A DNA stretch of 20,528 nucleotides from a virus (Duplodnaviria > Heunggongvirae > Uroviricota > Caudoviricetes), in the IMG/VR virus record IMGVR_UViG_2778261537_000015, positions 1-20,528 of that record. One strand, 5' to 3'. Shown in pieces: positions 9,001 to 12,000 of the stretch. A program made the position numbers. Numbering within the stretch: position 1 is the first letter of the stretch; each line of letters begins with the position of its first letter.

Positions 9001-12000
9001 AAAATATTGCTATTGTGAAAAATCTGGATTTCATTCTTTCCCCTTGTAAATTTTCCTCTGTTTGTATCCGTTAACTGAAGCAAAAGCACGCAACAGTTAG
9101 TTTTGCGCAGGATACCAGATGATAATGTGTAGTTGGAGTAGCGCGGTTTTAATGCAAGCATTTTGTTTTTGTTTTATGCTTGCTTGTATGTGTGTGCAGT
9201 GCATATAATGCAAGCATAGATCACAACAAAGGTGCTTGCATTATGACTGAAAAGAAAAGTGGTGAAGGGAAAGCTAAGGGCGGGATCGCTCGCGCAAAGT
9301 CGCTGACTAAAGAGCAGCGTTCTGAAATAGCAAAGAAAGCAGCGGCTGCAAGATGGAAAAGTAAGATTCTCAGAGCAACTCATCGTGGTAACTTTTTAGA
9401 TGATTTTGGCATTGATGCTGAATGTTATGTACTGGATGACGAGTCGAAAACTGTCGTTGTTACGAAAACTGGATTATCTCAGCTGCTAGGGATTGGTGAA
9501 CATGCCAGGGATTTAGATCAACTGCTTGGCGCTCAGTATATGAGCAAATACCGAGATCTAGAATTGCAGCGAAAAATGGAAAATCCCTATAAATTTCAAC
9601 TTACTTCGAAGTCTAAAACCGTTCATCAAGCATTAGGTTATGACATTACAGCAATTGTTGATATTGGTAGGGCACTAATAGAAGCCAAAGATAATGACGA
9701 TCTACCACAATCACGGTTAAAGGCCGCGGCTGCAGCGCAGAGACTTATTAATGCCTCCGCTAAGGCGGGAATTAAGGGGGTTGCGTATGCGCTTGCTGGT
9801 TATCGTCCAGAAGTTCAGGCTGTCATTGACGAGTTCAAAGCGTTTGTTCGTGAAGAGGCTCGTCAATATGAAAAGGAATTTCCAGATGAGCTATACGAGG
9901 AGTGGTATCGACTGTACGGCCTGAACAGGCCAGAGAAAGGACGGCCTATTCGTTTTGGGCAGCTAACCAACATGCAGATATACACCCCGCTAGCAAAGAG
10001 TAAAGGTAAAATCCTTGAACAGATTCGAGCTAGCCGAGACGAGAACGGAAAACAATCTGATAAGTTGCACCTGTTCCTTTCTGAAATTGGTGTCAAGGCT
10101 TTGCGTCAGCATATCGGTAAGCTTCTTGGTGTCGCAGCGATGAGTGAGACAAGAGAAGAATACGAAAAAGGAATAGAAAAGGTTTTTGGAAGAATGAAAC
10201 CAGAAATCTAATTATGAAACCCACCGTCAGGTGGGTTTTTTGTTTAGCAGTTCTCTCAACTTTTCGTTCTGTTCTCTGAATTTTTCCTGTATTTCTTTTT
10301 GCATGGCGATCACTTGGGCTTGAAGTTGAACTAGCGCATCAACATTTAGCGGAACCGAGACGCTGTTGATTTTGTCTGCTATTTCCCCAAGAGTATTTTC
10401 TGCATTCAAGGCATCTTCCAGTATCTGCACAATCTCTGAGTTCATAGAGCGCCCGTTTCGTTTGGCTCGTTCAGCTATAGCATCTCGCATTCCGTCAGGA
10501 AAACGGAGGTTGAACTTGTCGTAGTCTTTTACTTGTTTTTCGGCCATTGCAAATCTCTCAAAAAAAATCATGGTGCCATATTGCCATACGATTTCAATGG
10601 TGGCATTATGGCCTTCATGGCGTCACTTTGGCACCAAATAAAGGAGATTAGATAATGCAAGATACACTTTTCACTGAGCGCAAAAATATCAAACTCAACC
10701 TTCGCCTTCCATCACGGCTGAATGAAGACCTTCGCCGCCTGGCGGAAATGGACTGTATATCTCTGAACTCTGCAATTGTTCGTTTGCTGGCAAAAGGTGT
10801 TAGGGAAGAGGTGGCGAATGGTCGCTAAAAACAGCGAAGCCCCAATGGCTGCAACCATTGAGGCTTCTAAATTACCAGTTAACCACGAGAAAACTGATAT
10901 GACTAGTTTAGCAATTGCAGATCGCACAATCAATGTTCCATTCCACGGAACAAATCTCTTTTTGGTCAGCATTAACAATGAACCTTACGTTCCTATGAAA
11001 CCCGTTGTAGAAGGCATGGGTATGGTTTGGGCTGCTCAATTTGTTAAGTTAAAACAGAGGTTTGCCAAAGGTATTTCGGAAATCGAAATACCTTCTGCTG
11101 GCGGTAAACAGTTAATGACATGTCTTGCCTTTCGTAAATTTGCGGCTTGGCTTTCAAGTATTCAACCAAACAAAGTCCGTCCTGAAATCCGCGACAAGGT
11201 AATCCAGTATCAGGAAGAGTGTGACGATGTGCTCTACGAGTACTGGACTAAAGGCCATGTGGTTAACCCACGCAAAGCTAAAAAGGCGTTGCCGGGCAAA
11301 ATCACCACTGAACAGCAGGAAGCCATTAAACAACTCGTCATGAGTCGCGGTCAGTCTCTGCCAAAAGAAAAACAGGCTAAGGCGATGATCACCATGTGGT
11401 CGTCACTGAAATCCCATTTTGGATGTTCGTACAAAGAAATCAGTGAGGAGCAGTTTACCGAAGCACTGTCACTTGCTGCTCGTATTCCGCTTGAAGGCGA
11501 ATTCATCGGCAAGTCGAAACATAATGAGATGAGTTGTTTTGATTGGAGGATGAATGTTCATAACCTGAACTCGGCGTGCATTCATCTTGATGCCATGTAC
11601 AGAATATGGAGAGACGAAATGGAACCCGCTTTGCGATTGCTTGGCTCTCCGGTTGCGACCAGATTTTGCGGAAGAATTGCAGATTGCTATTCCGTAACTG
11701 CAAGCGTTAAGAAAAGTCTGGAGGATGCCGCAGGGCTGAAAGGCTTACAACCATTTTAACTACCTGCACGAAAAGTGCAGGTCAAGAACAAACGCAACGA
11801 CCCAGCTTCGGCTGGGTTTTTGTTTAATGGAGAGTAGATGGGCATAATCGATTTAAACACAGCAGACATATTCAATGCTATCGGTGGTGGCTCTCCGCTT
11901 TCGATTATCGACAGCGTTCTGCATCCTCAGTATGTGATTCGTGACAGGGAAACTGGCGAGGTTGCTCTTGAGTTCAGCGGTATGGCATCCGTACAGCCAA

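Follow-up and report, generated by a model that had tools for sequence, protein, structure and literature searches.

We analysed a stretch of 20,528 nucleotides of DNA from a virus of the class Caudoviricetes (IMG/VR record IMGVR_UViG_2778261537_000015, positions 1 to 20,528), which is referred to here as the window. It contains a gene for a P63C-domain protein of 322 amino acids (aa), preceded by a predicted promoter that carries four copies of a 10-bp element. From sequence comparisons, it is rather likely that this gene, its promoter and its terminator (9097-10244) form a self-contained, horizontally mobile cassette that represses itself via the N-terminal module of its product, a segment of ~30 residues that we refer to as KGG..ARW, and that does so independently of Mnt/Arc. 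The parts of this reading are not equally firm. The four sites are very probably protein operators for the P63C promoter, their binder is probably the cassette's own product, and we lean towards the N-terminal KGG..ARW module as the part of the product that would read them. From these comparisons we infer direct binding, the sign of the regulation and the residues that would read the DNA. What appears to be new here is an autoregulated accessory cassette that would use a previously undescribed DNA-reading module.

The 10-bp element, ATGCAAGCAT in the forward (F) and ATGCTTGCAT in the reverse (R) orientation, is found four times 5' of the P63C gene, in the order F-R-F-R on the + strand; two copies are perfect and two have one mismatch. 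Site 1 (F1, 9152..9161, ATGCAAGCAT) is upstream of the -35 region. Site 2 (R2, 9176..9185, ATGCTTGCtt) holds the -35 hexamer TTGCTT (9180-9185), which is separated by an 18-nt spacer from the -10 hexamer TATAAT (9204..9209), as read from the sequence. The final two bases of this -10 are the first two of site 3 (F3, 9208..9217, ATGCAAGCAT), which overlaps both the -10 and the predicted transcription start (~9216). Site 4 (R4, 9232..9241, gTGCTTGCAT) shares the end of the ribosome site AAAGG (9228-9232) and leaves 1 nt between itself and the ATG at 9243. Given a start near 9216, the site centres are at ~-59, -35, -3 and +21, and the centres of sites 2 and 3 are 31-32 bp apart, which is about three helical turns. 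A consensus promoter scanner did not call TTGCTT-18-TATAAT, as the -35 matches at only 3/6 positions.

A preliminary description of this DNA, made from the sequence alone, had placed a 322-aa open reading frame (ORF) behind a promoter with four half-sites, and this was borne out (ATG 9243-10211; sites at 9152, 9176, 9208 and 9232). It had also proposed two palindromic operators, one covering the -10 and the other the start codon. The repeats are real and do overlap the promoter and the translation start. However, they are not divided in that way. The palindrome made up of sites 1 and 2 covers the -35, and the palindrome made up of sites 3 and 4 covers the -10/start site as well as the translation start.

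Over the whole window the number of elements is unremarkable (5 observed, 2.8 expected), and it is their clustering that is unusual, with four sites within 100 bp in 0/1000 dinucleotide-preserving shuffles and at least three in 1/1000. The fifth copy, at 13221, is ATGCAAGCAT-like with one mismatch and lies away from the arc/mnt genes. The outer 4+4 bases of each site are palindromic. As the orientation of the central AA or TT is fixed (kept in 49/50 distinct promoters), each 10-mer probably acts as one arm of a long inverted repeat and not as a self-contained dimer site.

The P63C-domain coding sequence (9243..10211, + strand, stop codon at 10209-10211) was called mechanically from further upstream, at TTG 9180. 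The ATG at 9243 is the likely start, based on the AAAGG ribosome site 10 nt 5' of it and on the alignment of homolog N-termini. Assignment of the product to the P63C family was confirmed: residues 199-286 match Pfam PF10546 over profile positions 3-92 of 93 with 52.7 bits, above the cut-off of 26.1. A full-length match was found to phrog_2384 (PHROG 2384; E 1.7e-104; protein residues 6-321, profile positions 4-328 out of 338). A total of 1682 homologs were found at E <= 1e-5. The KGG..ARW module, the proposed DNA-reading element, occupies residues 9-38 (9267..9356, + strand; GKAKGGIARAKSLTKEQRSEIAKKAAAARW), and G13, G14, R17, A30, R37 and W38 are invariant in 89 homologs. An AlphaFold2 (AF2) model has two helices in the module (11-20 and 23-38). 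Residues 43-135 (9369..9647, + strand) form a middle alpha/beta domain, and the Pfam P63C domain (9837..10100, + strand) lies within an all-helical C-terminal half (137-315). The module is separate from the P63C domain; the basic N-terminal motif, which the preliminary description linked with P63C-domain proteins, is not that domain. Nor was the suggested KilA-N or Bro-N relationship found, as a Pfam search at E <= 1 returned P63C as the sole match. For the module, Pfam and NCBIfam gave no match, and phmmer and profile searches of the PDB gave no meaningful one. No solved structural relative of the fold of the P63C body was found, and none of the defence-protein families in PADLOC-DB v2 matched the protein at E <= 0.01.

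To examine conservation of the promoter, 138 loci encoding relatives were drawn from genome and viral collections and their upstream regions were aligned. All four sites (<=2 mismatches each) are present in 73/96 distinct upstream regions, and several of the remaining regions also have four sites that are displaced by a mis-set start codon. In the 73 regions, the sites are located at ~-88, -64, -33 and -9 from the start codon, with spacings between successive sites of 22-25, 30-32 and 23-24 bp, and their order is always F-R-F-R. This four-site layout is kept at protein identities of 45-52 %, in Myxococcota, a Syntrophaceae genome, Oscillospiraceae, Burkholderiales, Xanthomonadales-type genera and Acidobacteriota. 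The information content in 57 non-redundant promoters is 1.4-2.0 bits per position, mostly ~2, for the core TGCAAGCA/TGCTTGCA, and mostly 0.1-0.6 bits for the flanks of the sites (range 0.0-1.0, with the maximum of 1.0 beside the core). A TA..AT hexamer is found in a fixed register on site 3 in the same set (1.4-1.5 bits), and site 2 of the homologs includes TTGCAT ~17 nt upstream of this -10. In most homologs, site 4 extends into the start codon as TGCTTGCATG.

In the sequence of 43 distant loci (275 kb in all), the exact 8-mers are almost confined to the P63C promoter. When viral contigs were searched in reverse, for the pattern TGCAAGCA-N14-18-TGCTTGCA, 121 groups were recovered, 75 of them just upstream of a P63C homolog; the remaining groups are single pairs, and their number is that expected by chance. 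Two-site variants of the promoter were also seen (L089-L095, L098, L134, L136, L137 and L139). These are missing the 56 bp from site 1 to site 3, including the -35 and the -10, a loss of the kind that recombination between direct repeats would produce. Upstream, the flank of these variants resembles the 3' end of a tRNA gene, and ARAGORN called none in L089.

In the sequences compared, the sites track the N-terminal module, and not the protein body or the neighbouring genes. A canonical module is accompanied by at least three sites in 80 promoters. One such protein, orf23 of phage ST104, is only 31 % identical to the window protein overall and ~27 % identical in the body, yet it has the module GKSKGGVARANALSAEERSAIARKAAAARW and all four sites at the same spacing. 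The annotated start of ST104 orf23 is an ATG inside site 3 (L265:2279-2317), and translation probably begins 12 codons further on, directly behind site 4 (MSDKESKEP..). The E. coli protein P0088, which shares its promoter with the window, is identical to the window protein at 38 of the first 39 residues, whereas the remainder is only about half identical, and in H42 the promoter and the first 39 codons are 96.6 % identical to the window in nucleotide sequence before the two diverge. These breaks in similarity place a recombination joint right after ..ARW.

Homologs that lack the module, namely L048, L053 and those of Erwinia phage Midgardsormr38, Streptococcus phage Javan515 and Salmonella phage SI8, have 0-1 sites. 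The bodies of L048 and L053 are 46-47 % identical to that of the window protein, including the ATHKGNF..CYVLDD middle domain, yet these loci have neither the module nor the sites. Where the module is altered, the repeats differ. In 933W and BP-4795, the second helix is changed (..ESSRKAVAAKKEK) and ACGTGCAT repeats, reaching the start codon, are found instead. Burkholderia phage vB_E192a has a variant module and is missing the canonical sites; two copies of GTTAGATAT were found upstream by eye, whereas a repeat finder reported other short inverted repeats and not these. Six acidobacterial loci and Gordonia phage Kuwabara combine an N-terminally extended module with TACTTGC/GCAAGTA palindromes, and Lodos and SEN34 have partial sets of sites alongside partly diverged modules. 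Actinophage Barco has only two sites and an apparently intact module.

The preliminary description had allowed for control either by the product itself or by Mnt/Arc. Autogenous control is the best-supported reading, as the sites travel with the gene's own N-terminal module across phyla. As no neighbouring gene is common to all of the contexts, the binder would most simply be the cassette's own product, and no other protein with a KGG..ARW motif is encoded in the window. In the mechanism that we favour, the KGG..ARW module of the product would bind the four sites, and the protein body would probably supply oligomerisation, holding two or four flexible N-terminal modules. With sites 2 and 3 occupied, RNA polymerase would be blocked and the gene's own transcription shut off, and occupancy of site 4 would be an additional downstream block. 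Such negative autoregulation would give a low and constant dose of the protein in any phage or element, independent of the Mnt/Arc or cI circuits of the host phage. It would also mean steady low expression and not silence, and it does not follow, as had been proposed, that the gene is tightly repressed and hence a candidate toxic gene.

The module is also found outside the window at the end of proteins of 70-120 aa (e.g. P0125-P0293), which make up 13,522 representative clusters at E <= 0.001 and 3,644 at E <= 1e-10; some members contain the unit twice. There is no Pfam or NCBIfam model for this small KGG..ARW family. In ~24 distant loci, including L008, L014, L017, L027, L034, L038, L044, L047, L054 and L055, the P63C gene is divergent from a gene for a 280-320-aa protein with a helix-turn-helix (HTH) and a DDE_Tnp_IS1-type domain, and in 18 of these a small KGG..ARW protein is encoded convergently downstream. 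The HTH-DDE and small-protein genes may make up an IS1-family-like element with variable passenger genes. Clear element boundaries were seen only in L038, where inverted repeats of 21 bp, perfectly matched (94-114 and 3020-3040), flank the whole unit. The same pair of genes also occurs with other cargo (L140-L143), and the sites were not found in those units. In L141, the small KGG..ARW gene and the DDE_Tnp_IS1-type gene are separated by a tRNA-Pro gene (4236-4333), and the two are thus not always part of one contiguous element. The possibility that the P63C gene of the window is itself a passenger of an IS1-family-like element was considered and rejected, as the window contains neither a DDE_Tnp_IS1-type gene nor a gene for a small KGG..ARW protein.

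Several observations count against a self-repressing cassette that uses the module as its reader. Only five homologs serve as module-less controls. Among known DNA-binding domains, the module has no detectable kin, and the confidence of its AF2 model is low (predicted local distance difference test, pLDDT, ~56-71). The sites are not present in the promoters examined for genes encoding the module-bearing small proteins, and the module alone may therefore not fix specificity. Many of the soil-bacterial loci adjoin two other candidate binders, the HTH-DDE protein and the small KGG..ARW protein. Finally, the complementarity of the F and R sites permits hairpins.

The last point leads to an explanation that we regard as unlikely, in which read-through RNA from upstream pairs site 3 with site 4 (and site 1 with site 2) and so buries the start codon, with the result that only transcripts from the gene's own promoter are translated; an attenuator or a cruciform would be variants of this. 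The AUG is part of a 14-bp stem into which the RNA from 9204-9262 can fold (-17 kcal/mol, z = -4.5, 0/200 shuffles as stable), the pairing requires exactly the F/R orientation seen, and there is a weak C-G / T-A association at the outer pair F3[10]/R4[1]. However, the conserved -10 sets the transcription start inside site 3, and for RNA that starts at 9216 the structure is not unusual (z = -0.18). It is the sequence itself that is conserved, at ~2 bits per core base, and not merely the pairing, and the changes found inside the stems are one-sided and break the pairing, with none compensatory. Hairpins also leave unexplained why loss or alteration of the N-terminal module is accompanied by loss or change of the sites. 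A purely RNA-structural explanation of the sites is consequently weak, although hairpins could form a second layer over protein binding that silences read-through. If autoregulation is real, the sites might instead be read by the well-folded middle domain (residues 43-135), with KGG..ARW contributing non-specific nucleic-acid affinity or partner binding. This seems improbable, as L048 and L053 have retained the middle domain and lack both the module and the sites, the middle domain of ST104 orf23 is very different and its sites are kept, and the recombination joints fall just after ..ARW.

An external repressor that occupies the sites could be the product of the adjacent Arc/Mnt-family gene (10227-10571, minus strand), Arc itself (10655-10828) or a host factor. 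Ribbon-helix-helix repressors do bind short repeated sites, and in the window and in P22-like phages the cassette is tail-to-tail with an Arc-family gene in an immI-like module. The sites are, however, conserved where there is no Arc/Mnt gene nearby, as in ST104 (after cI), in L104 (Q-to-holin) and in many other phyla, including soil bacteria, and a host factor would need to be common to all of those phyla. The arc/mnt intergenic region (10571-10636) has palindromes of its own, TGGTGCCA../GCCATATTGCCA, which are unrelated to the sites, and no further ATGCAAGCAT-like site is found near the arc/mnt genes of the window. We therefore consider control by Mnt/Arc, as raised in the preliminary description, or by another external repressor to be very unlikely. 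Even less credible is an origin in the IS1-like units, with the sites bound by the HTH-DDE transposase-like protein or the small KGG..ARW protein and merely inherited by the phage copies. The ~24 loci with the divergent gene, the 18 with the convergent small protein and the inverted repeats of L038 are compatible with this origin. However, units with the same two genes but other cargo do not have the sites, the window has neither gene, and inherited relics would not have kept ~2 bits per base in a set of over 40 distinct enterobacterial promoters.

That 9097-10244 is a mobile, self-contained cassette is highly likely. This 1.15-kb portable unit (9097..10244, + strand), or moron, consists of the predicted four-site promoter, one gene and an intrinsic terminator (10216..10245, + strand, also given as 10216-10239; 10-bp stem and T run), which is shared with the convergent Arc-family gene ending at 10227. 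Its boundaries are megablast breakpoints, obtained by comparison with phage records and complete E. coli genomes (aligned query 58..1205 of 9040-10260 and 598..1742 of 8500-10700). Identical breakpoints, at window positions 9097 and ~10244, were found in the unrelated P22-like podovirus vB_EcoP-611R6 and in ~45 E. coli chromosomes. The terminator and these shared breakpoints support the earlier description of a discrete, terminator-insulated moron. Stx phages have only the Arc-side flank (10220-10700) in common with the window. A cassette-free site in the same type of prophage was not found, and the only close relative among the complete E. coli genomes also has the cassette.

Cassettes of this family have been found in at least four different phage slots. 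In addition to the immI-like module of the window, they are directly after cI in ST104 and between Q and the holin gene in L104, and a more distant homolog with the variant module and different repeats is in the nin region beside roi in 933W and BP-4795. Distant P63C homologs directly after the immunity repressor gene were seen in L265 (ST104), L274 (SI8), L268 (Midgardsormr38), L272 (Javan515) and L276 (Kuwabara), and this is the position of rexAB in lambda. The slot after the immunity repressor often holds exclusion genes that are expressed in lysogens. Taken together, the slots (after the immunity repressor, immI, Q-to-holin and nin) suggest a lysogen-expressed accessory or exclusion-type gene, and an exclusion or defence-type role for the P63C protein is plausible from this genomic context.

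The P63C family (PF10546) is named after p63 of Myxococcus phage Mx8. Iyer, Koonin and Aravind are said to have described P63C in Genome Biol in 2002 as a C-terminal partner of KilA-N/Bro-N DNA-binding modules. The window protein is similar in having an N-terminal candidate for nucleic-acid binding followed by a P63C body, but differs in that the N-terminal element is the ~30-residue KGG..ARW module and not KilA-N or Bro-N. Nothing on the function, an operator or the regulation of the P63C family is reported in the searchable literature, and neither the KGG..ARW module nor its sites are described there or in Pfam, NCBIfam or the PDB.

Among known systems, a similar arrangement is found in P22 immI, in which the ribbon-helix-helix repressors Arc and Mnt act on Pant/Pmnt. 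The cassette has the same neighbourhood, short inverted repeats over the -35 and -10, and what would be tight, self-contained control of an accessory gene. However, its regulator appears to be part of the regulated protein and has no ribbon-helix-helix signature, and its operators are unlike the arc/mnt palindromes of the window and persist without an Arc/Mnt gene nearby. The control proposed for the cassette would thus resemble the operator-over-promoter repression of P22 immI without being a member of that circuit. Phage morons and exclusion genes include lambda rexAB after cI, P22 sieA/sieB and genes in the stx slot after Q. Like these, the P63C cassette would be an independent unit of promoter, gene and terminator; it is present or absent among related phages and uses the same slots, but a built-in autoregulatory promoter conserved across phyla has not been described for those morons, and the P63C cassette has no PADLOC match. 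A further parallel concerns the small KGG..ARW proteins. IS1 encodes at its end a small DNA-binding regulator, InsA, and the small KGG..ARW proteins would be analogous in being small and basic and in being encoded near the end of an IS1-family-like unit beside a DDE_Tnp_IS1-type gene. There is, however, no sequence similarity between them and InsA.

We suggest, tentatively, that KGG..ARW is an unrecognised minimal module for sequence-specific DNA binding and that, together with the four-site promoter, it makes up a 'plug-and-play' self-regulating unit that has spread among phages and IS1-like elements in different bacterial phyla and that recombination can join to different bodies. If so, the shared module would indicate that a large class of small DNA-binding regulators has stayed hidden. 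If the module does read the sites, the accessory gene would bring its own dosage control to any phage or transposon, and a first molecular role would be available for part of the P63C family and for a very large small-protein family. Testing and engineering would also gain a compact pair of repressor and operator that is orthogonal and for which natural variants of specificity exist (GCAAGCAT, GCAAGTAT and ACGTGCAT). To our knowledge, it is unusual for cis-regulatory sequences to be preserved from one phylum to another. In this case, the whole arrangement of promoter and operators, along with a 30-residue protein module, has been retained in sources that range from enterobacterial phages to Acidobacteriota and Myxococcota. 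The analysis also corrects an easy misreading of the 9097-10244 region as part of the Mnt/Arc circuit.

The window itself is a contractile-tail prophage, with the immI-like module (10227-11759) set inside the tail genes, between the tail sheath gene (4237-5727) and the baseplate hub gene (12837-13826). The module includes the minus-strand Arc-family gene (114 aa), with its palindromes between divergent genes, the Arc-like gene (57 aa) and Ant (10776-11759). Just outside the left breakpoint of the cassette is an ORF for 152 aa (8576-9034, minus strand) that has a signal-peptide-like N-terminus by eye (MKSRFFTIAIFSSVLLSLAAYAAS..) and no match in PHROG, PADLOC or NCBIfam; it is probably another accessory gene. 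Many enterobacterial cassettes open with a conserved hairpin and T run (GGTCGCAGAGATGCGGCC-TTTTTT) just 5' of site 1, examples being L086, L082, L133, L138, L005, L006 and L265, and the copy in the window is without the hairpin. The hairpin-bearing cassettes would thus be insulated by terminators on both sides.

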